Below, in pieces: positions 2,254-14,646 of a stretch of 14,646 nt of DNA (position 1 is the stretch's first letter; the number at the start of each line of letters is the position of its first letter). The translations under genes and the position numbers were made by a program. Below the pieces are notes generated by a model that saw only the letters and a program-made list of their open reading frames with translations, did no database searches and was not told the DNA's origin. The stretch is from a virus (Duplodnaviria > Heunggongvirae > Uroviricota > Caudoviricetes): the IMG/VR virus record IMGVR_UViG_2718218127_000001; one strand, 5' to 3'.

Positions 2254-2279
2254 ACGCCCCGTGCGGGCGTTTTGCTTTT
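2254..2279 (+). terminator. putative rho-independent terminator on the plus strand
   Basis: Stem ACGCCC, loop CGTGC, stem GGGCGT, then TTTGCTTTT. The opposite strand has no U-tract. Confidence 0.35.
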
Positions 2280-2889
2280 ACAAAGTCAGGCCAATGCCTC
2301 TGGCTGCTTTCCCCGCCTTACGCTCAACCATGCCCGTGATTCTATCTACTACCGGACTGAATGCCTGCCAGTAAGCCACCTCCATTGCTGACAACTCTGC
2401 CCGCTTCCTGTCAAACGTAGCCCAGCGCATCCCCTTTGGTTTTGGGAACATGCGAATGTCATTAAACAGATTATTGGCAAGGTCATTGCTTCCCCATATC
2501 GCGCATCGCTGCTGGCGTATCTTCATTCGCATCCTGTCCAGTCTGTCGGCGCTCTGGCTTTTATAGTGGAGTTTCCAGCACGCCCGGCAGCCAATATCTT
2601 TCTTGCCGATATACAGCTTTGCAGCCCGTTTCATACAGTGGGGACAAACGTACCATTCCCGGACGCCATACCCGGCTTGTGTGGTCGTGGTTCTGATTGC
2701 CCGTGTAACGCCGTTGATTGTCATGGCGTAGCTGTCGGCTTGCCGGAAGGTATACAACGTTCCGCTTTCGGTCTGGGTATAAAGCTGCGTCCCCGGTTCG
2801 GCGTCCGCCAGCCTGCTACGCATGTTCGCAAGGAATGGCAACCCTATACGGGGCAGGTCGGTGATATAGCTGCGCGTTCTGTCTCTCAC
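2278..2889 (-). CDS. hypothetical Cys4 zinc-ribbon protein, 203 aa
   Basis: Track ORF. The start is GTG, preceded by a perfect AGGAGG 7 nt upstream. Contains CPHC-x14-CRAC (C-x2-C ... C-x2-C). Confidence 0.55.
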   Translation of the reverse strand: MRDRTRSYITDLPRIGLPFLANMRSRLADAEPGTQLYTQTESGTLYTFRQADSYAMTINGVTRAIRTTTTQAGYGVREWYVCPHCMKRAAKLYIGKKDIGCRACWKLHYKSQSADRLDRMRMKIRQQRCAIWGSNDLANNLFNDIRMFPKPKGMRWATFDRKRAELSAMEVAYWQAFSPVVDRITGMVERKAGKAARGIGLTL

Positions 2890-2992
2890 TGGCGGGCCTC
2901 CTGCGAATTACTGCGCATTAACTGCGAACGGTGCGCAAAAATGAATGCGAAATAATATGCGTATTTTACTGTAAATTGCGCACTATTTTGCG

Positions 2993-3110
2993 CACTGCGA
3001 ACCAATGGCGCGAGCCAGAATATTTTGGACTGCCTAAATCGAATATGGCTTCCAGCCCGCTACTGGCGCGGTTCTCTCTTCATATGGGCTTTGAGTCTGT
3101 CCAGTACAGT
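2993..3110. repeat. regulatory repeat block A (copy 1 of a duplicated ~80-110 bp module)
   Basis: Shares with block B a conserved stretch of the form ACCA-TGGCGCGA-CCAGAATATT-TGG ... CCTAAATC ... TTCCAGCC ... CTGGCGCGG, followed by a CTGT-N5-ACAG dyad (about 3097-3109). Preceded by several TGCGCA hexamers. Confidence 0.6.
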
Positions 3111-3143
3111 CCAGTATTTCAACATCGGTGACTATACGGATTG

Positions 3144-3521
3144 CTAACATGCGCCGTTTTTTTTAACCCTTCGCAGATCCCGCCTTGCTTGCATTGAAAC
3201 GGATCTCGCTAAACTCAGCTCAAGCCGTGCGATTCTGTCGGCATGTAGCCCCATGAGTCCGTTAATCAATGTCATCTCGCGCCATTCTTCTGTTCCCGGC
3301 GTCGGATTAGTCGCCAGTAATAGCCCGTATCTCTCAGCCATCATGAGGTTTCTTGCACGATTTCGCACCAGCGGAGAAAGCGCATCTTCTCCCTCAAACG
3401 GGAAGAATGCCCGCCTACTGCGTTCGCCATGTTTGACGGCATTAGTATTGCCCAACGGTGCGCCTGCGCCTTTCCGCTTGCCACCCCATCCGGATCTTGA
3501 TTGTTGGCTATTTTTTTTCAT
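3144..3521 (-). CDS. hypothetical basic protein, 125 aa; possible small-terminase-like or packaging-redirecting protein
   Basis: Track ORF with ATG start. The N-terminus GKRKGAGAPLGNTNAVKHG resembles motifs I associate with small terminase-type DNA-binding proteins; this is from memory and unverified. Confidence 0.5.
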   Translation of the reverse strand: MKKNSQQSRSGWGGKRKGAGAPLGNTNAVKHGERSRRAFFPFEGEDALSPLVRNRARNLMMAERYGLLLATNPTPGTEEWREMTLINGLMGLHADRIARLELSLARSVSMQARRDLRRVKKNGAC

Positions 3522-3575
3522 TTAACGGCTCACTGTGCGCAAAAACCCTAACTGAATGCGCGGTTTTGCTGCGTA

Positions 3576-3705
3576 CCTGACTGCGTACTGCGTACCAGTG
3601 GCGCGAACCAGAATATTCTGGACGACCTAAATCACGCTCTGGTTTCCAGCCCTCTGCTGGCGCGGGTTTAGCGCTACTTGGGTTTAAAATCTGTCAAGAA
3701 CAGTC
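3576..3705. repeat. regulatory repeat block B (copy 2), upstream of the 125-aa gene
   Basis: Contains the perfect 14-bp palindrome CCAGAATATTCTGG (about 3608-3621), a CTGTCAAGAACAG dyad (about 3691-3703) and CTGCGTAC repeats. It is the direct-repeat partner of block A. Confidence 0.6.
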
Positions 3706-3735
3706 TAGAATTTTAGCCTGCGTTCGGTGCGAACC

Positions 3736-4086
3736 TCACGGCACAGACGAGTACCAGTAAAAGCCTGTTAGCCCGGCATCGCAGCGCTCACGATTAAGCA
3801 CACGTGGCGGGTTTTCTCTGGTCATCAACTCAAGCAAGGCATTGCTTCCCTGCGTCTCCAGTCGGTATTGCCTGTCGGTAGTGGTAATGGCATCCGGCAA
3901 TAACTTTATGGCGGCCTGGCTAAAGTCTCGCGGTGCGCCGTAAAATTGCGCATCAACAATATGAACCACATCGCCGTTAATCGTTGTCCGATAACGGTCT
4001 GGCTGTATAGTAAAGCCCCCACAATGGATAGCAGATAGTGCCGGTGCCGATGAGATCAGGACGGCTGCCAGAATGTATGGCTTCAT
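3736..4086 (-). CDS. hypothetical secreted protein, 116 aa
   Basis: Track ORF with ATG start and GGTGGGTGA upstream. The N-terminus MKPYILAAVLISSAPALSA looks like a Sec signal peptide. Two Cys residues. Its start overlaps the upstream stop as ATGA. Confidence 0.55.
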   Translation of the reverse strand: MKPYILAAVLISSAPALSAIHCGGFTIQPDRYRTTINGDVVHIVDAQFYGAPRDFSQAAIKLLPDAITTTDRQYRLETQGSNALLELMTRENPPRVLNRERCDAGLTGFYWYSSVP

Positions 4087-4724
4087 TCTTCACCCACCAA
4101 TTCATCCAGTTCAGCCAGCGTCATAGGCTTTGGTACAGGCTTGTCAATATCACCCATAATGCGCTGGAAGTTTCTGGCAGGCATATGGTTACGGTTCTCC
4201 AGTATTTTCGCCAGCGCGATAACATCCCACCATTTCAGGGCAATCAGCGCCTCAGCACGGGAAAGTGATATTCTCTGTATATCAGCATCCTCTCCACCAG
4301 CCACCCGGTATACCTCTGATAAATCACGAACATTTTTCATGTCTGCTTTCCCGGACGTTTCCATCAGTGCGTTAATATCATCCCCCGTATAGCGTGATTG
4401 CGCGACGATACCAGCCAGAGAGATAACCATATCCCGGCATACCTGGTCTATCAGACGTAATCTGGCGTCATCGTTCGAGAGGGTGTAAGACTTAACCTCA
4501 GCCACATTCCGTGGATAGTTGGCGTGCCATACCGCGACGGCTCCACACTCATCAACATCGCCGCTAAGGTAGGTTTTTGCCACTCGGTTATTACCCGATA
4601 ACGCAATTTCTACCTCCTGTATGCCGAAAAACCATGCGGCTATCGCATGACCTGCTTCGTGTATTGCGAGATGTCTGGGCCAGCGATAGCTGCCTAACTC
4701 GATAATGATGGGTTGCGTACTCAT
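4083..4724 (-). CDS. putative zinc metallopeptidase with an HEAGH motif (FtsH/M41-like active site), about 213 aa, no AAA+ or transmembrane region
   Basis: Track ORF 4083..4781. I prefer the internal ATG (MSTQPI...) because the longer form overlaps the SSB-like gene by 47 nt and the internal start has GAGAGGGAA upstream. The motif IHEAGHAIAAW is identical over seven residues to the FtsH zinc-binding signature. Confidence 0.5.
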   Translation of the reverse strand: MSTQPIIIELGSYRWPRHLAIHEAGHAIAAWFFGIQEVEIALSGNNRVAKTYLSGDVDECGAVAVWHANYPRNVAEVKSYTLSNDDARLRLIDQVCRDMVISLAGIVAQSRYTGDDINALMETSGKADMKNVRDLSEVYRVAGGEDADIQRISLSRAEALIALKWWDVIALAKILENRNHMPARNFQRIMGDIDKPVPKPMTLAELDELVGEE

Positions 4725-4734
4725 ATCTTCCCTC

Positions 4735-5196
4735 TCAGAATGGCGTTTCATCGTCGAATGGTGGGCGTTGGTCAAAATCATCAGGGGTATTATATAACTC
4801 CCATCCCGGCGCGGATTGTGTTGTGTGGCCCCTGCTGGCTCCGCTTGCTTTGACTGATTCGGCCCGCTTCCCGCCGGGGCGTACCGTTCTGGCGCTGATC
4901 ACGCTGTCGGCTACTACCTGATAACCTTGCTGTGTACCGCCATCCTTGCCCGTCCACTGATTGATCTGCATCGCTCCGGCAACACTGACTAAATCGCCTT
5001 TAACGTGTCCTGCCAGTGCGTCGGCCTGTTTGCCGAATGCCACCACGCCCAGCCAGAAAGTAACCTCTCCGCCCTCTGCTGTATGGCAGGGCAGTGCCAC
5101 CGCTAACCGTCCCATTGCCATGCTTGTACCGTTCGTTGTGGTACGGGTCTGGGGATCTGCCACCAGCCGCCCGTATGCTGAAATTTGTGCTGTCAT
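4735..5196 (-). CDS. single-stranded DNA-binding protein (SSB-like OB fold with acidic C-terminal tail), 153 aa
   Basis: Track ORF with ATG start and GAGGAA upstream. The pattern W..VVAFGK.A......KG..V.V.G.....W....G......VV parallels the E. coli SSB core, and the C-terminus ...PPFDDETPF resembles the SSB ...DFDDDIPF tail. Confidence 0.65.
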   Translation of the reverse strand: MTAQISAYGRLVADPQTRTTTNGTSMAMGRLAVALPCHTAEGGEVTFWLGVVAFGKQADALAGHVKGDLVSVAGAMQINQWTGKDGGTQQGYQVVADSVISARTVRPGGKRAESVKASGASRGHTTQSAPGWELYNTPDDFDQRPPFDDETPF

Positions 5197-5495: not shown

Positions 5496-5548
5496 TGCCC
5501 ACCTCGTTATAAGCTACCCCCCCCATAGAATCTTTTTGGGGGTGTAAT

Positions 5549-5800
5549 ATCCCTACCAATCCCTACTAACTGGCTCAGGCCACGAATGGCAAGGCTTTCA
5601 GACTGGTAGACATTCAATTTTGTTGCCCTACATAACCCTACTTATCCCTACTAAATCACTTCAACGGCATTTTACTGCCTGTTTTATTTGGTAGGGATAA
5701 GTAGGGATAAGTAGGGATAAAAATATATATCCCTACCTAGTTTAAAGCCTTGCTACGTCTGGCCTCGTCTCGTTTTTAGTAGGGCAGTAGGGATAAGTGC
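5549..5800. repeat. iteron-type replication origin
   Basis: At least 11 copies of a TAGGGATAAG / CCCTAC core with 10-bp phasing: inverted-orientation copies near 5549-5566 and 5626-5651, three perfect tandem GTAGGGATAA units at 5691-5720, an AT-rich stretch AAAATATATAT, then further copies near 5731 and 5779-5796. Lies immediately 3' of the primase gene. Confidence 0.7.
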
Positions 5801-5813
5801 CGCCGTAAAAGTT

Positions 5814-8255
5814 TCAATCATCACTCTGCCCGCTCTCCACACCGTAAGCGCGTGGCATGAACTCCTCAGCCTTCTCGTTATAGCCAACGTTGGTTTGCGC
5901 TCTGCCGTTAATGCTTCTCGTCAGGTAGCTGGCTCGGTACTCTTTTGCTGCTGATTTTATGGCGCGTGAAAACTTATTGACGGAAAGCGGTTTACCCAAA
6001 CCGTGATACTCCATAAACGCCAGATAAAGATGATAAAGATACGTCCTCGGCTCTGGCTGGCCTGCCCATGTACCTCCGCCCATCATCATGCCTTTGGGTT
6101 CGTTCATGAAAAAAAGCGCCGCACACATATCGACAACCGGATCCGTGCCGCGTTTAACCTCTAGCGCCTCCTGCGAATCGCGCTGCTCTAGTAATAGTGC
6201 CTTTGCTTTGTTCTGGTCGGCAAAGGTGGTTAGCAGGTGGCGGATAATCACCGGGATTTCTCGCCTGATTTTTGCGGTTAAATCCGGGTCTTTGTCTGCG
6301 TCTGATACCGGGTTATTAAACGGGAATATCACGCGGCGGCGGGCAATGCCCCCGTTTCGCTCCGTGAATGTCATTGGCTCGTTATTGGTTGCCATAACAA
6401 CGGCATTTATCACGGTTGTGAACTGCTTTTCATATTTCCCATCAATCTCTACCGGATCGCCGCCCGTAATGGCTTTAATCCCCGCACCCTCTCCAACGTA
6501 GCGGGTCTGGTCAGGCATAATAATCAGGCTTTTCCCTACGAACTGCGCCCGTCCCCGTGCGGTGTCCAGCGTCATCATGCTACCGCTGGCGGTGTTGTGT
6601 TCACCTGCCAGCGTGGTTGCTATGCTGCTGAATACGGATTTCCCACTGCCGCCCTCGCCAGTTATCTCAATGAATAGCTGCCAGTCGTGACGCTTCGCCA
6701 GCACCATAAACAAGGCTGCTTTGATACGCTCGGCCTTATGATGGTCGCCAGCCGTTGCATGATTCAGCCAACGGGTAAAATTGGGGGCGCTGGTGGAAAT
6801 ATTCTCCCCCGGCGCTGGCGGGGTGTAGGTGATCCCATTGTGGTTCATCAGCCAGTTACCCGGCGAATGGGCGGAAAACGTCTGCGTAGCGAGGTCATAA
6901 ACGCCGTTATCAAAACCAATCAGATCCCCGCTCCGCTCACCAATTACCGGTATTTGCAGCTTCATGGTTGCGACAACCGATTTAATCCCTTTTTCGGTGT
7001 AGTGGGCTTCGTGCTCGTCGAAAATTGCCACCATAACCCTTTCTAATTCGCTGTCTGGTAGCTTCACCCATACGCCAGATTCGTAGCAGTAAACAGCGCC
7101 ACTATCAGGGTTGACCGCCAACATATCCCAGCGAGATGAAAGCAACCGCGCTTTCTGGCTGGCTGCCATTTGTGCAATATCTCCGACTTCGGCTTTACGG
7201 CGGGATTTACCGCCCACAATGGCCTGTAGTTGTGGTTTCACGGCTTCCCCCTGAATCTGGTACATCGAATCGTTAAACGCAGCCGTAGCGACTTCCAGCC
7301 CGTTTTGCTGGCGGTAGTCGTCCCAGTCGGCTTTGTAGTCTGTCGGCGGCAGCGCCACCCAGCCAGCCACGGATAAGGCGGCTTTCTCTGCGGCATCTTT
7401 GCCCGTGTTCGCCTGTTCGTCCTGCTGGTGGTCGTTATCTGCGGCAATGATAATTTGCGACTGCGGGTGTTTCCGGCGCATTACTCCGGCAACGTGGATC
7501 AGGTTCCCGGCGTCAATTGCCGCCACTGTAAGCGCGTCCGGGCGCATCAGGTGAACGGACAGGGCCGTCGCCAGCCCCTCGGCAATTAATACGCTCTGCG
7601 GCTGTTCTGGTGCGTTTACGGCGTGATATGCCCCGCGCTTTGCTGAACCTGTCAGGAGTCGCTTCTCTCCCTGCGGTGTAATGGTTTGCGCTGCTGCCAC
7701 TGCGCCGGATTCGTCCACCAGCTCCAGCAATAACGAACCATCCGGCATAACCGGATAGTTAAACCCGGTCAGCCCTTTTGATTGCAGGTAATCAGATTCT
7801 CCCTGTGTGGCACTCTGGCGCATTCCGGCATACAGACGGGCAAACGTAGCCCTTCGCTGCTCTGCATCCTCTGCTGCCTGTTTCTGGCGCTCCTGCTCAC
7901 GCTGCTGGCGGTCAGCTTCCAGTTGCTCTCTTCTATGGCTCGCTGCCACCGGGTCGGTTTGCGCTGCCCGGTAATCAATACCCAGCACATCAGCGGCAAG
8001 CTGTGCCGCCTCCGTAGTGTCGCAGTTGTTCACCTTCTTAATCAGGTCTAAACCGTCACCAGCGCCACACTGATTGCAGATAAAGCTACCGCGCCCGTTG
8101 TCGTCGAATCTGAAACGGTCTTTTCCACCACATGCAGGGCATGGAGAATGGCGGCGCGATGAATCAGGCACGTCGATAGACAATCCAGCCAGCACATAAG
8201 GCCAGCGCCCGGCGGCGGCACTGGTCACTTCGCGGATAAGGTCGATATTACGCAT
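5814..8255 (-). CDS. P4-alpha-like bifunctional DNA primase/helicase, 813 aa
   Basis: Track ORF with ATG start. N-terminal zinc ribbon CPACGGKDRFRFDD...FICNQCGAGDG, a central TOPRIM-like region, and a C-terminal NTPase with Walker A GEGGSGKS. Confidence 0.88.
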   Translation of the reverse strand: MRNIDLIREVTSAAAGRWPYVLAGLSIDVPDSSRRHSPCPACGGKDRFRFDDNGRGSFICNQCGAGDGLDLIKKVNNCDTTEAAQLAADVLGIDYRAAQTDPVAASHRREQLEADRQQREQERQKQAAEDAEQRRATFARLYAGMRQSATQGESDYLQSKGLTGFNYPVMPDGSLLLELVDESGAVAAAQTITPQGEKRLLTGSAKRGAYHAVNAPEQPQSVLIAEGLATALSVHLMRPDALTVAAIDAGNLIHVAGVMRRKHPQSQIIIAADNDHQQDEQANTGKDAAEKAALSVAGWVALPPTDYKADWDDYRQQNGLEVATAAFNDSMYQIQGEAVKPQLQAIVGGKSRRKAEVGDIAQMAASQKARLLSSRWDMLAVNPDSGAVYCYESGVWVKLPDSELERVMVAIFDEHEAHYTEKGIKSVVATMKLQIPVIGERSGDLIGFDNGVYDLATQTFSAHSPGNWLMNHNGITYTPPAPGENISTSAPNFTRWLNHATAGDHHKAERIKAALFMVLAKRHDWQLFIEITGEGGSGKSVFSSIATTLAGEHNTASGSMMTLDTARGRAQFVGKSLIIMPDQTRYVGEGAGIKAITGGDPVEIDGKYEKQFTTVINAVVMATNNEPMTFTERNGGIARRRVIFPFNNPVSDADKDPDLTAKIRREIPVIIRHLLTTFADQNKAKALLLEQRDSQEALEVKRGTDPVVDMCAALFFMNEPKGMMMGGGTWAGQPEPRTYLYHLYLAFMEYHGLGKPLSVNKFSRAIKSAAKEYRASYLTRSINGRAQTNVGYNEKAEEFMPRAYGVESGQSDD

Positions 8256-10182: not shown

Positions 10183-10221
10183 GTCACCGCCTGAGTTTCC
10201 ACGCTCTGAAATGGCGGTGAC
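10183..10221 (-). promoter_or_regulatory. stem-loop in the 5' leader of the replication-module operon
   Basis: Inverted repeat GTCACCGCC ... GGCGGTGAC (9-bp arms, about 21-nt loop). On the minus strand it is followed by TCCTT, which could pair with the AAGGAGG of the 63-aa gene. Confidence 0.3.
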
Positions 10222-10345
10222 GTTAGCAGGGGTGGAAATACCGGACACAAAGGAAACCGGCCTACGCGAACGTAGCCCCACTAACGCCACCATAGATACA
10301 GTACGGACGAGGCCGCTGATTTGATGTGCGTAGTGATCGGACACA

Positions 10346-10367
10346 AAAAAAGACGCTTTCGGCGTCT
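10346..10367 (-). terminator. putative rho-independent terminator on the minus strand
   Basis: Minus strand reads AGACGC-CGAAA-GCGTCT followed by TTTTTTT. It sits between the regulatory module and the replication module. Confidence 0.45.
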
Positions 10368-10654
10368 GTGTCGCCCTTAGTGTGTTCGGGTTTCCACGCC
10401 CGGTTGCTGATTTTGCAGCAACGCTTGGACTATAACAGCTTTTCTCTGCTAGGTGGTCATACCAGATAAAACCGTAACCCTTTAAGAGTTTTTCCTGTGC
10501 ACGGCTCACCATCTTTTTGTTGAGGGTAAGCGCCTCGCGTACTGGTAACGGAACTCCGGGCGCTGCGGTATCAATATCAGGTTTTGTAAGGTTGCAGATG
10601 TCAACTTTTGACAACATGCCAGCCAGATTAAAGGCTTCTTTCTGGGCGGCAGGT

Positions 10655-11675: not shown

Positions 11676-12110
11676 TTAGGCGGCGGTGAGATTGTCCGGG
11701 TATAGGTTGAGAATGTCGGCAATTTCAGGCTGAGAAAGTCCCTGATAGCCGCCAGCGTCGGCGTTATGGTTCACAAGCCGAATAACTTTCAGAACGTCAC
11801 CGCGCCCGGTAAAGCGATAGCGTAAATGTGACCCTATCCCGTCGGGGTTCTTTTCGTCTATACGCTCAAGCTGAATATCAAGCCTGCGCTCTAACTCACT
11901 GGCGTAGTTCCTTCCAGACGAAAGGCGGCAATAACGCAGAATGTCGTTTTCTGTCCATCCCTCTACGCCAGTACGCAGCATATAGACGCGGGCGCGGTGT
12001 TTCTTTGGGGTTCGCTTAGGTACTTGTACCGGGCTGGTGGTCGGCGTAATATCAGACGTGCGAATATCTGAGTTAGCCGCCTGCTGTACGGGGCGGTTTT
12101 TCTTTTTCAT
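11676..12110 (-). CDS. hypothetical basic protein, 144 aa
   Basis: Track ORF. Its ATG overlaps the alpA stop (TAATG), so it is translationally coupled to alpA. Confidence 0.5.
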   Translation of the reverse strand: MKKKNRPVQQAANSDIRTSDITPTTSPVQVPKRTPKKHRARVYMLRTGVEGWTENDILRYCRLSSGRNYASELERRLDIQLERIDEKNPDGIGSHLRYRFTGRGDVLKVIRLVNHNADAGGYQGLSQPEIADILNLYPDNLTAA

Positions 12111-12313
12111 TACGCCACCTTTCCCCGGCGCTCCGCCAGCCAGTTGTGAATATCAGCCGCATCAAAGGCGGTAATCTTCTCGCCCAGCTTTACCGGACGT
12201 GGTAGTGAACCGTTTCTTACTTTACGGTCGATGGTGGATACACTAACGCCCAGCAATTCAGCCAGGCGAAAGCGTCTGATATAGCCTTTTGTAGGGATAG
12301 TGTCGATGTTCAT
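12110..12313 (-). CDS. alpA: AlpA-family (Vis/excisionase-like) HTH transcriptional regulator, 67 aa
   Basis: Track ORF with ATG start and AAGAGG upstream. The helix-turn-helix LAELLGVSVSTIDRKVRNG and its small size and position next to a P4-type integrase are typical of AlpA/Vis. Confidence 0.72.
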   Translation of the reverse strand: MNIDTIPTKGYIRRFRLAELLGVSVSTIDRKVRNGSLPRPVKLGEKITAFDAADIHNWLAERRGKVA

Positions 12314-12425: not shown

Positions 12426-13271
12426 TCATGATTTCTTCTTTCCTGCCGTGGTACGTTTTTCCGGCAATCTGTCCATGTCAGATATGATCTTCTTTAAATA
12501 ATCTGCAGATGGTTCATCATAATCGCCACCCACATGTGGCCAGTGGTCTATCGTAGCGTTTGCCCACGCTTCGTTGGTTTCTTTCCCGTTTTTCCCTTTG
12601 CACTCTTCAGGATAGTGCCGTTTCACATAAATCAACGCCATAATGCTATTCTCACGGTTTAGGCTATGTCGTGCTCTATTTCCATGCTCTATGTTTTTAA
12701 ATTCCTTTTCATAAAGATCGTGTGAACCCAAATGGAGTATGCTGGATATTGGCTGATTTTTATCCATGCTTTCAGCTATATATTCAACCCACGGTCTTGA
12801 TATATACAAATCTTCCACAGACGATACGGTGGTATCATATTCGCGAAAATCGTAGAAAAAGTAACATCCTGATGTGATGTCTAGTTCTTTTTTTATATAT
12901 GCTGGTGAGAATATGAGTGGAATGTCAGGGACTCTCTTAACCCCTGCAAGGGAAGCAATGAAATCTCTAGGAACGTGCCATAATCCACTTGCTGAGCACT
13001 TCATACCATCGAAAAAACCTTCATTTAGATATCTTTCGGTATCTTCTCTAGTAGAAATAATAGAACCAAATAATAAGTTTTCTATGCCTTTGCTGCCGTG
13101 GTCTGGTGGCAAGTTTCCCACTTGAAGGAGTACGCCTTCATACTTGTGAATTATTGTGCTCAAAAATATAGAGCCTGATACTCCCATAAGTAGAAGATCA
13201 TCGACTTCTATTTCTAATAAATTTGCTGCTCTATTAAGTCGGAAAAAAAGATTTGGTGGTAGTTTTTTCAT
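12426..13271 (-). CDS. hypothetical orphan cargo protein, about 281 aa, AT-rich
   Basis: Track ORF 12426..13286 begins with GTG. The ATG five codons in (MKKLPPN...) has AGGTGA upstream. Base composition is visibly more AT-rich than the flanking genes. No family recognised. Confidence 0.6.
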   Translation of the reverse strand: MKKLPPNLFFRLNRAANLLEIEVDDLLLMGVSGSIFLSTIIHKYEGVLLQVGNLPPDHGSKGIENLLFGSIISTREDTERYLNEGFFDGMKCSASGLWHVPRDFIASLAGVKRVPDIPLIFSPAYIKKELDITSGCYFFYDFREYDTTVSSVEDLYISRPWVEYIAESMDKNQPISSILHLGSHDLYEKEFKNIEHGNRARHSLNRENSIMALIYVKRHYPEECKGKNGKETNEAWANATIDHWPHVGGDYDEPSADYLKKIISDMDRLPEKRTTAGKKKS

Positions 13272-13386
13272 TGCGTCACCTTTCACGCTACGCCTTAATG
13301 AGCGATTGAGTCAGGCGGTAAGGCTTCCCGCTTTTCACCCCGTCGGGCTAGACTCAATCTGTCCTCTGATTCTTTACATATCTTGG

Positions 13387-14646
13387 TTACTTCGCCTTTC
13401 TCAGCGGTGTAACGTTGTATTCCTGCCCCTGTTCCAGTGCCACCAGCAATCCCGCCCACTGTGTTAACGCGGCCCGGCGTTCATCAAAGTATTGGTGGCG
13501 GTTATAGATACCCTCCACGCCTTTAATTTTGTGGTTGAGGCATCTTTCAGCCACTACGGGATCAACGCCCAGCGCGGCTAAATGGGTGCGGGCTGTGCGC
13601 CGGAAGTCGTGAATAGTGAAATTCGGCACGTCCGGCATTTCAGCGCGAACCTTAGCCAGTGCTACGGGTAAAGTGCTTTCCTGAATATGTGGGATCATGC
13701 GGTTTTGCATCTTTCTGGCTGGCAGTACCCATGCGCTGTTGCATGAGAACGTTTTAAGCTCTCTCAGCCATTCGACGGCTGGCGGTGCTAATGGAATGTC
13801 TATAGCGTCGCCGTTTTTGCTGCGTTCCTCTGGCAAGCGCCATACGGCTTTATCAAAATCGAACTCCTCCCAGCGGGCGGCGCATAACTCCATTTTGCGG
13901 ACGCATAACGCTAACAGTAATTTGAACGTGATTTCGTTCTGGCGACTGAATCCCTTAGCCGTGCGCATGGCTTTGAATAGCTGGATTAACTCATCGCGGG
14001 TTAACCAGCGGTCACGGGCAACTTCTTTCCCTCCAGCGTCGGCAACCTCAAAGGCTGAACACGGGTTAATCTCCAGTGCGTGCCGCTTAATGCCGTAGTC
14101 AAATATGCGGCGTGTCCAGCGCAGAACGTCCGTTGCTATGGTCGGCGCTCCACGGTCAACAATACCTTTCAGCATGTCATCGATATGGCGCGGCTTCACG
14201 TCCTCCACCTTCATGCTGCCAATGCAGGGGTTTATATCTTTGTCGATACGGCGGCGGAGTATATCGGGGTGCTTCCAGCGCGGAAGGATCTGACGCTCAA
14301 AGTATTCAGCGGCAAGCTCTGAAACGCGCATAGCGTTCTTCTCTGCTTCCATCTTCGCCAGTGCTTCGGTTTTGCGCCTCTGCTTCTCTCCTGCAACGTC
14401 ATAGCCCAGCGCAACGCGAGCCGATAGCTCTTTGGCTGTCTCTCTGGCCTTTGATAGTGATAGCTCGGCATATGAGCCAATCAGCATGGCGCGGGGTTTC
14501 CCTGCGAATTTATAGCGGAATCGCCAGACGGGGGTCTGGTAGTTTTCGCGGTATGAAAGATAAAGCCCGTTACCGTCAGAGCGTCCCTCGAATCGCTCCC
14601 CGGCCTTTATCCATGCGCGGATCTGCATGTCTGTGAGTTTTGGCAT
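13387..14646 (-). CDS. int: P4-type tyrosine integrase, 419 aa; start codon at the window edge
   Basis: Track ORF with ATG at 14644-14646. N-terminal arm-binding-like region (GLYLSYRENYQTPVWRFRYKF) and a C-terminal catalytic region with the HDFRRT...H..Y tyrosine-recombinase pattern. Confidence 0.9.
   Translation of the reverse strand: MPKLTDMQIRAWIKAGERFEGRSDGNGLYLSYRENYQTPVWRFRYKFAGKPRAMLIGSYAELSLSKARETAKELSARVALGYDVAGEKQRRKTEALAKMEAEKNAMRVSELAAEYFERQILPRWKHPDILRRRIDKDINPCIGSMKVEDVKPRHIDDMLKGIVDRGAPTIATDVLRWTRRIFDYGIKRHALEINPCSAFEVADAGGKEVARDRWLTRDELIQLFKAMRTAKGFSRQNEITFKLLLALCVRKMELCAARWEEFDFDKAVWRLPEERSKNGDAIDIPLAPPAVEWLRELKTFSCNSAWVLPARKMQNRMIPHIQESTLPVALAKVRAEMPDVPNFTIHDFRRTARTHLAALGVDPVVAERCLNHKIKGVEGIYNRHQYFDERRAALTQWAGLLVALEQGQEYNVTPLRKAK

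Follow-up and report, generated by a model that had tools for sequence, protein, structure and literature searches.

What does a small and very basic protein do for the island that encodes it, when the island carries neither a capsid nor a terminase of a recognised kind? The window, by which we mean the whole analysed stretch of 14,646 nucleotides (nt; IMG/VR record IMGVR_UViG_2718218127_000001), is an island lying between yicC and dinD of Escherichia coli, and the gene that raises the question encodes a protein of 125 amino acids (aa) starting with MKKNSQQSRSGWGGKRKGAGAPLGNTNAVKHGERSRRAFFP. An earlier note on this DNA had suggested that the protein hijacks or mimics the small terminase (TerS) of a helper phage. 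The reading that we tentatively prefer is close to this: the protein may belong to a packaging module and serve as a DNA-specificity adaptor, carrying an arm of the small-terminase type, in an island that resembles a phage satellite.

The gene is real and under purifying selection, and not a chance open reading frame (ORF), because it has 108 homologues at E<=1e-3 in a search of about 5.8 billion proteins, because residues are conserved among them, and because the ratio of non-synonymous to synonymous substitution rates (dN/dS) against diverged homologues is as low as 0.07-0.16. The homologues are found in Escherichia, Klebsiella, Kluyvera, Serratia, Dickeya, Pectobacterium, Salmonella, Rosenbergiella and others; all 108 are labelled 'hypothetical', and none of them has a Pfam domain. 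The 125-aa protein itself has no match in Pfam, and PADLOC gave zero matches both for it and for nine neighbouring ORFs. Nothing relevant was found among PDB sequences, whether the query was the protein, the family profile or a wider profile of its motif. The basic character pointed out in the earlier note is pronounced, with an isoelectric point of 11.4 and 24 lysines and arginines as compared to 11 aspartates and glutamates. Distant relatives over the full length were seen in Tolumonas (L028), Colwellia and Pseudoalteromonas (L035-L036), where they are encoded on small integrase-bearing islands just ahead of defence cargo; read from the sequences only, this cargo includes a Cas3-like helicase and further genes that look CRISPR-associated, an Mrr-like gene and the specificity subunit of a type I restriction-modification system.

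The protein is divided into two very different parts. Residues 7-39 are for the most part at least 90% conserved in the family alignment, and the glycine-rich basic motif described in the earlier note is found there, residues 14-32 being GKRKGAGAPLGNTNAVKHG. The invariant positions are G20, A21, P22, N25, N27, G32, E33 and S35 in this arm, together with R81 further on. An AlphaFold2 model made with the family alignment predicts the N-terminus to be disordered, with a predicted local distance difference test (pLDDT) score below 50 for aa 1-37, followed by a short helix and then a helical hairpin with a pLDDT of about 93-97 over aa 51-120. Conserved residues in the hairpin are R55, N58, L59, G66, R81, L85, G88 and H93, and it presumably acts as an oligomerisation or partner-binding element. 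Neither a helix-turn-helix (HTH) nor a winged HTH is present in the AlphaFold2 model or detected as a Pfam match.

The arm is the only part of the protein that resembles proteins outside the family, and the resemblance, as far as annotated families go, is to small terminases. The 125-aa protein matched phrog_1889, 'terminase small subunit', over aa 14-33 with E=0.0026, and the NCBIfam model NF040601, 'TerS_not_xtmA', over aa 9-33 with E=6.6e-4 and 19.4 bits; PF10668 was not matched. Within the family, 41 of 44 members matched phrog_1889 and 6 of 44 matched phrog_509, and neither the protein nor its relatives matched an annotated profile family other than those of TerS. The motif GAPxGNxNAxKHG is common to the 125-aa protein and the small terminases of the YqaS/YjcR type. 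A profile search of 1.8 billion representative proteins returned 270, mostly small, and the majority of these share nothing more than GG(K/R)RxGAGAPxGNxNAxKHG near the N-terminus. Among 78 of these proteins, phrog_1889 was matched by 22, phrog_509 by 11 and phrog_9231 by 11, all of them TerS families, with E values down to 1e-12.

Two phages show where such a motif can sit in a packaging gene. In Streptococcus phage Javan11 the TerS is a protein of 243 aa encoded directly upstream of the large terminase (TerL), with a PF10668 HTH, then GAPKGNKNAVGHGAPKGNTNAVKHG, and then helices. A comparison of our family with this protein by hhalign gave a probability of 93.9% and E=1.6e-7 over 42 columns, and the alignment spans residues 78-125 of the Javan11 TerS, from the motif into the first helix. 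A protein search with the Streptococcus TerS found near-identical sequences only, and no diverse TerS profile resulted from it. The other case is an IMG/VR phage contig, L062, in which a 109-aa motif protein starting with MEDNKNNKNGWGGKREGAGAPTGNTN overlaps the start of a Terminase_3 TerL, followed downstream by an SU10-type portal and then the capsid gene. This contig shows that a protein made up of the motif and a small domain can fill the TerS slot without an HTH. The link between the motif and small terminases, which the earlier note had drawn, is supported by phrog_1889, phrog_509, NF040601, the hhalign result and the position of the L062 protein. There is no TerL gene in the window or in the related islands, so the gene of the 125-aa protein does not itself lie upstream of one. 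Small proteins starting with MPRGGKRPGAGAPKGNLNALKHG were also seen among housekeeping genes in metagenome-assembled genomes of Chloroflexi (L031-L040) and in Alphaproteobacteria (L041-L042), and proteins with this start are widespread beyond Enterobacterales. Some proteins, e.g. P0128, P0129 and P0163, have the motif in two to four tandem copies.

The gene neighbourhood also points to packaging. Loci from genome, IMG/VR and assembly collections were compared, and in about 21 of about 50 of them, many of which are not independent of one another, a gene for DUF2280 (PF10045, phrog_546) directly adjoins the homologue on the same strand; the same is seen in L074/L075. The two genes are found in three arrangements: DUF2280 lies 0-60 nt downstream, with stop and start codons sometimes overlapping, in the E. 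coli, Klebsiella and Enterobacter types, it lies about 340 nt downstream in Serratia, and it lies upstream in Salmonella. The islands L066-L068 belong to the same family as the island in the window and have an integrase, AlpA, AntA, an icd-like gene, a P4-type or DUF927-type primase, a single-stranded DNA-binding protein (SSB) and an M41-like protein, and here DUF2280 occupies exactly the slot that in the window is taken by an ORF of 203 aa. Regulators of the PerC family are frequent neighbours of the homologues as well.

DUF2280 is encoded in 324 phage records, and it is found immediately upstream of TerL, or overlapping it, in Pseudomonas phage BUCT566, Acinetobacter phage Acba_3, Klebsiella phage KP12 and Citrobacter phage Omnitron. 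The same gene order is found in a table of Acinetobacter baumannii prophages (PMC7760358). The DUF2280 of Omnitron, the DUF2280 proteins of satellites and two unrelated TerS-slot proteins of 209 and 223 aa have a C-terminal tail in common, ...T(D/N)LTxxxAAxxY(K/R)xMMG, about 20 residues long. Both of these TerS-slot proteins precede an Omnitron-type TerL in prophages, and the proteins of the satellites presumably serve a TerL of this type. The tail looks like a portable segment for docking to TerL. The N-terminal parts of these proteins are of three unrelated types, DUF2280, the 209-aa type with an HTH and the 223-aa type, which have only the tail in common. In one IMG/VR record (UViG_2861008536_000008, here L078) a satellite of 12.5 kb at 7462-19963, with a P4-type integrase, a primase, DUF2280 and a homologue of the 125-aa protein in this order, lies inside a prophage, with the DUF2213 gene on one side and the genes for cement and major capsid proteins on the other, co-oriented with the late genes. 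The TerL of this prophage is 96% identical to that of Omnitron, and its own TerS-slot protein is of the 209-aa type. The prophage is a candidate helper, and satellites embedded in a helper have been described before (PMC10111431). The Salmonella loci L074/L075 were grouped with L078 as a case of an embedded satellite. Because DUF2280 adjoins TerL in phages, shares the tail and is part of the embedded satellite in L078, it may be a satellite-borne small terminase in the manner of the Staphylococcus aureus pathogenicity islands (SaPIs), with the family of the 125-aa protein as its constant companion. In the literature searched, DUF2280 is mentioned only as being of unknown function, and the coupling of our family to DUF2280 and to arrays of short repeats appears to be undescribed.

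These arrays are part of a duplicated block, and the gene lies between its two copies, as the earlier note had it. The copies can be aligned over about 200 nt, are 73-87% identical in the matched segments and are spaced 594 nt apart. At the 5' end of each block there is a pair of direct repeats (3683-3712 and 3089-3119), which in the upstream block reads CTAGAC-N4-CTTGAC. The two members of the pair vary together between copies, and CTGGAC-N4-CTGGAC, TTAGTAC-N3-TTAGTAC, CTAGAC..CTTGAC and CTGGAC..CAGGAC were observed in the window, L002-L005 and L020, which suggests that the pair is a binding site whose specificity changes between islands. A palindrome, CCAGAATATTCTGG, follows at 3608-3621, with an imperfect second copy at 3015-3028; its core, AGAATATTC, may be similar to a site of the RcsAB-box type. 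The hexamer T(T/G/A)CGCA is repeated four times within 3536-3594 in the upstream block and nine times, on the same strand and with a mean spacing of about 12 nt, within 2902-3001 in the downstream one. Such a cluster of nine per 100 nt is to be compared with a maximum of four in 1000 Markov-1 simulations. The hexamer as such is not enriched in the window, 43 copies being observed and 36±6 expected, and it is only the clustering that is significant.

About 50 of 5426 complete E. coli genomes contain the block, the median being two copies, and in related islands it also precedes other genes. Arrays of GGTACGCA/TGCGCA recur upstream of the homologues in Klebsiella, Serratia, Rosenbergiella and others. 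A sister island, L001, has a primase that is 98.4% identical to the one in the window, yet it has neither the gene nor the arrays. The arrays go together with the gene, and not with the origin or the primase. We considered whether the flanking duplication is a feature of the whole family and rejected this, as it is found only in the E. coli relatives of the window, L002-L004, and in part in Atlantibacter and Shimwellia. An Rfam scan of the window at gathering thresholds, and one of 2800-3800 by E value, found nothing in the blocks, and covariation in a structured RNA is unsupported by RNAalifold on eight copies, with a covariation term of +0.52 and one compensatory pair. A promoter and terminator scan found no consensus sigma-70 promoter on the strand of the gene.

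In the reading that we prefer, the two parts of the protein would divide the work between them. The hairpin would oligomerise the protein, and the basic glycine-rich arm, common to some phage small terminases, would bind to the T(T/G/A)CGCA arrays on either side of the gene. Lacking a tail for docking to TerL, the protein would work through another small terminase that has one, which could be the DUF2280 of the island where this is present and the TerS of the helper in islands like that of the window. The outcome would be that the helper terminase is directed onto island DNA, probably at the expense of the helper. That the protein binds DNA, oligomerises, binds a partner and affects packaging are all steps that we only infer. 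A stronger version of this proposal, that the family is a new kind of satellite packaging specifier, in which an arm-plus-hairpin protein on its arrays reprograms a separate TerS, either DUF2280 or that of the helper, and the two together make up a two-part small terminase, is in our view rather doubtful.

Several observations weigh against a role in packaging, and some of them would fit a small DNA-binding regulator of transcription, which would control distal packaging and accessory genes by way of arrays that serve as operators in two leaders, its own and that of the following gene. The score of 19.4 bits against NF040601 is far below the curated cut-off of 120, and the similarity to TerS never covers the whole protein, only about 25-45 residues of a motif rich in glycine, alanine and asparagine; it reaches no further than some 20 residues beyond the motif. 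What stands of the small-terminase mimic or hijacker in the earlier note is the TerS-type motif and the packaging context; the profile comparison that it called for did give the two TerS matches, below curated cut-offs and confined to the motif. As the same motif is found in small proteins of Chloroflexi and Alphaproteobacteria in non-phage neighbourhoods, it is not specific to TerS, and under the regulator explanation its likeness to TerS would reflect nothing but a shared DNA-binding arm. Fold searches with the model found generic helical hairpins, and TerS was absent among the matches. No homologue was found by tblastn in 50,697 phage records. The window has no DUF2280 among its ORFs in a jackhmmer search seeded with this family, and the 125-aa protein is not a DUF2280 either; the putative TerL-docking tail of the DUF2280s and TerS-slot proteins of the Omnitron type is absent from it and from every other ORF in the window, so that the island encodes neither tail nor TerS partner. 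A recognisable cos site is lacking in the island. The arrays, which are part of the duplicated leader or promoter block, are located shortly before two start codons, where operators would also fit, and the Pectobacterium and Salmonella branches of the family do not have them. To this comes the dependence among the compared loci mentioned above. The placement of the block before other genes in related islands is likewise what a regulator would need, and the frequent PerC neighbours give the region a regulatory character. On the other side, the protein lacks an HTH or any other fold known from regulators, Pfam gives no match for it, and every annotated profile match is to TerS. Nine repeats in the same orientation with an irregular spacing of 7-19 nt would be unusual for a dimeric regulator and are probably more typical of the sites of terminases and initiators. 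The tight and sometimes overlapping linkage to a TerS-slot gene, in three arrangements, also speaks against a regulator. Taken together, we find the regulator explanation unlikely, though a serious competitor to the packaging adaptor.

Two further explanations are less probable. In SaPI packaging operons interference genes lie beside a satellite gene of the TerS type, and the 125-aa protein could be a pure interference factor like Ppi of the SaPIs or Gpi of the satellite PLE, blocking the small or large terminase of the helper without recognising DNA, in which case the arrays would be unrelated promoter features. The gene is island-specific, absent from phage genomes and adjoins a satellite TerS-type gene in the way of these operons, and a terminase-like arm could serve as a decoy. 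This would leave the co-occurrence of arrays and gene unexplained, and conservation in the protein is highest in the arm, whose disorder and strongly basic character suggest contact with nucleic acid; we regard pure interference as improbable. P4-family replicons use two iteron regions, and since short iterated direct repeats and AT-rich stretches flank the gene, the arrays might instead be a second site for replication or partition, like crr of P4 or par, with the protein as its binding factor. The island has a separate iteron origin of the classical kind right after the primase gene, the sister island with its nearly identical primase is without both arrays and gene, and the module is found with several types of primase and also in loci with no primase within 10 kb. 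The origin and the sister island largely exclude this explanation, and we give it very little credence; for the same two reasons the arrays were rejected as the origin used by the primase.

The preferred reading, a packaging adaptor with a TerS-type arm, has several parallels among known systems. One is Rpp (RppA/B/C), the packaging redirector of cos-type phage-inducible chromosomal islands (PICIs) in E. coli. Rpp has 144-153 aa, with a winged HTH like that of lambda Nu1 and a three-helix dimerisation domain, and the islands that encode it retain a lambda-like cosN and cosQ (PMC6739421, PMC9026076). Its dimerisation domain is a C-terminal coiled coil, it forms a heterocomplex with the TerS of the helper and is needed for the transfer of the island, and the cosB of such islands is their own. 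Murialdo and Feiss proposed that Rpp supplies the DNA specificity and comes to TerL by way of a borrowed TerS, and C-terminal TerL binding is established for the TerS of lambda (PMC9026076). Both Rpp and the 125-aa protein are small, island-encoded and located after the replication module, and in both cases the proposal is that a subunit confers DNA specificity, has no region for binding TerL and depends on a borrowed small terminase (PMC9026076). The mechanism, by this analogy, would resemble that of Rpp in function, with a different fold and family: instead of a winged HTH and a three-helix domain there is a disordered glycine-rich arm and a two-helix hairpin, and the lambda-like cosN and cosQ of Rpp islands have no counterpart in the island of the window. 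A 12-mer of lambda cosN had three matches in the window at two mismatches, as compared to 1.4 expected, none of them near the gene, and the cos sequence of P2/P4 was absent. RppC is present in PDB as 6HLK and 6HN7, and when the 125-aa protein and a 44-sequence family profile were compared with all PDB chains, nothing was matched at E<=10, RppC included. The model did not match the fold of 6HLK, and two other candidate ORFs in the window did not match RppC. The earlier note had linked the protein to this known redirector, and the identification with Rpp has to be dropped: neither sequence nor fold matches RppC, a winged HTH is missing, and so is a lambda-like cosN.

The small terminases of the YqaS/YjcR type (PF10668, phrog_1889, NF040601; e.g. 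Javan11) share GAPxGNxNAxKHG, followed by F/Y-x-P and a helix. They differ in being about 240 aa long, with an HTH at the N-terminus, ahead of the motif, and more sequence on the C-terminal side, and in being encoded upstream of TerL; the 125-aa protein lacks both the HTH and the C-terminal part. The likeness to the SaPI module of TerS and Ppi is one of gene layout, a satellite TerS plus a small protein acting on the packaging of the helper, as related islands pair DUF2280, with its C-terminal tail of the helper type, with the small island-specific gene of our family. Unlike the SaPI module, the island of the window has no gene of the TerS type, and a repeat array is linked to the gene. In the PLE of Vibrio cholerae several small satellite proteins, Gpi, GpsA and GpsB, re-specify the packaging motor of the helper (PMC11417361), and here the sequences and hosts are unrelated and Gpi acts directly on TerL.

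The remaining features of the window are collected in Table 1. By its genes alone, an integrase, an AlpA-type regulator and a primase with an adjacent iteron origin, the island has the layout of a PICI-type satellite. All of its genes but one are on the minus strand, and it has no sid, psu or delta genes of P4 and no structural or lysis genes. The region with the C4 RNA, isrK, the icd-like ORF and AntA is an immunity cassette of the P1/P7 type. Downstream of the primase gene there are about four direct TTATCCCTAC and about five inverted GTAGGGAT iterons, and this spacer is very likely the replication origin of the island. The gene of the 125-aa protein comes after the replication module and before variable cargo or accessory genes; it is after the replication module that PICIs carry their packaging and interference genes (PMC6739421; PMC10085698).

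Table 1. Features of the window, with the tail-bearing proteins of other loci in the last row
Feature	Position	Strand	Remarks
Gene of the 125-aa protein	3144..3521	minus	basic protein, ATG-to-stop ORF; unnamed family restricted to Enterobacterales islands
Near-invariant glycine-rich basic arm, codons 7-41	3399..3503	minus	QQSRSGWGGKRxGAGAPxGNTNAVKHGERSRRAFFP; alignment and model
Two long antiparallel helices, 50-71 and 78-124 (codons 50-124)	3150..3374	minus	AlphaFold2 model
Upstream copy of the block	3522-3735	minus	leader/promoter region of the gene; repeat pair, palindrome, four hexamer repeats
Downstream copy of the block	2890-3143	minus	leader of the next gene (203-aa ORF)
203-aa zinc-ribbon ORF (CxxC...CxxC)	2278..2889	minus	slot directly downstream of the gene
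61-aa protein	1861-2046	minus	phrog_7271; ends ...APAYQWKKPAPRR
232-aa HExxH protein	4083-4781	minus	HEAGHA zinc-metalloprotease motif; conserved next to SSB in these islands
Iteron origin region	5496-5813		spacer of 318 nt directly after the primase gene; AT-rich core between TTATCCCTAC repeats
P4-family primase-helicase	5814-8255
C4 antisense RNA, a1/b1 targets, isrK	10210-10435	minus	Rfam; beside icd-like ORF and AntA gene
alpA	12110-12313
286-aa ORF	12426-13286		next to alpA
int-alpA RNA	13292-13358	minus	Rfam; between the 286-aa ORF (12426-13286) and the integrase gene
Integrase	13387-14646
SSB, 116-aa signal-peptide protein, 119-aa ORF			island genes of the window; the 119-aa ORF on the other strand
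Tail-bearing proteins	L072 6001-6474; L078 1654-2283 and 19096-19569; L085 1185-1856; L066 10436-10909		in the loci named

Three of the neighbours deserve a comment. The 203-aa ORF has no match in Pfam, PHROG, PADLOC or PDB, and its sole outside match is a weak one by tblastn (E=7e-4), to an unannotated region of the Streptococcus satellite Javan652. The 61-aa protein was not found in phage records by tblastn; it also neighbours the family in Serratia (L024, L023), immediately upstream of the homologue, and it may be part of the same module. Relatives of the 232-aa protein are named 'peptidase M41 family' in RefSeq, and no Pfam match was obtained here. That it could be the COG4900 metallopeptidase found beside DUF2280 in phages was rejected, the two having no similarity.

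Satellites spread genes for virulence, resistance and defence by stealing the packaging machinery of phages, and in Gram-negative hosts only the Rpp route, which depends on helpers with a lambda-type cos, and the capsid-forming PICIs are understood. Neither Pfam nor PHROG has a name for the family described here, although many islands of Enterobacterales carry it and it is coupled time and again to a gene in the TerS slot, also in satellites that sit inside Omnitron-like prophages. The finding would be ordinary if the protein were only a regulator. If it does redirect packaging, this would explain how a large set of islands without Rpp is mobilised, would give DUF2280 a function, and would provide a cis site that can be tested. 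Should the family also prove to be a new specifier, it would be a second and structurally unrelated way of achieving what Rpp does in lambda-dependent PICIs, and DUF2280 would be a family of small terminases with a portable tail for docking to TerL.

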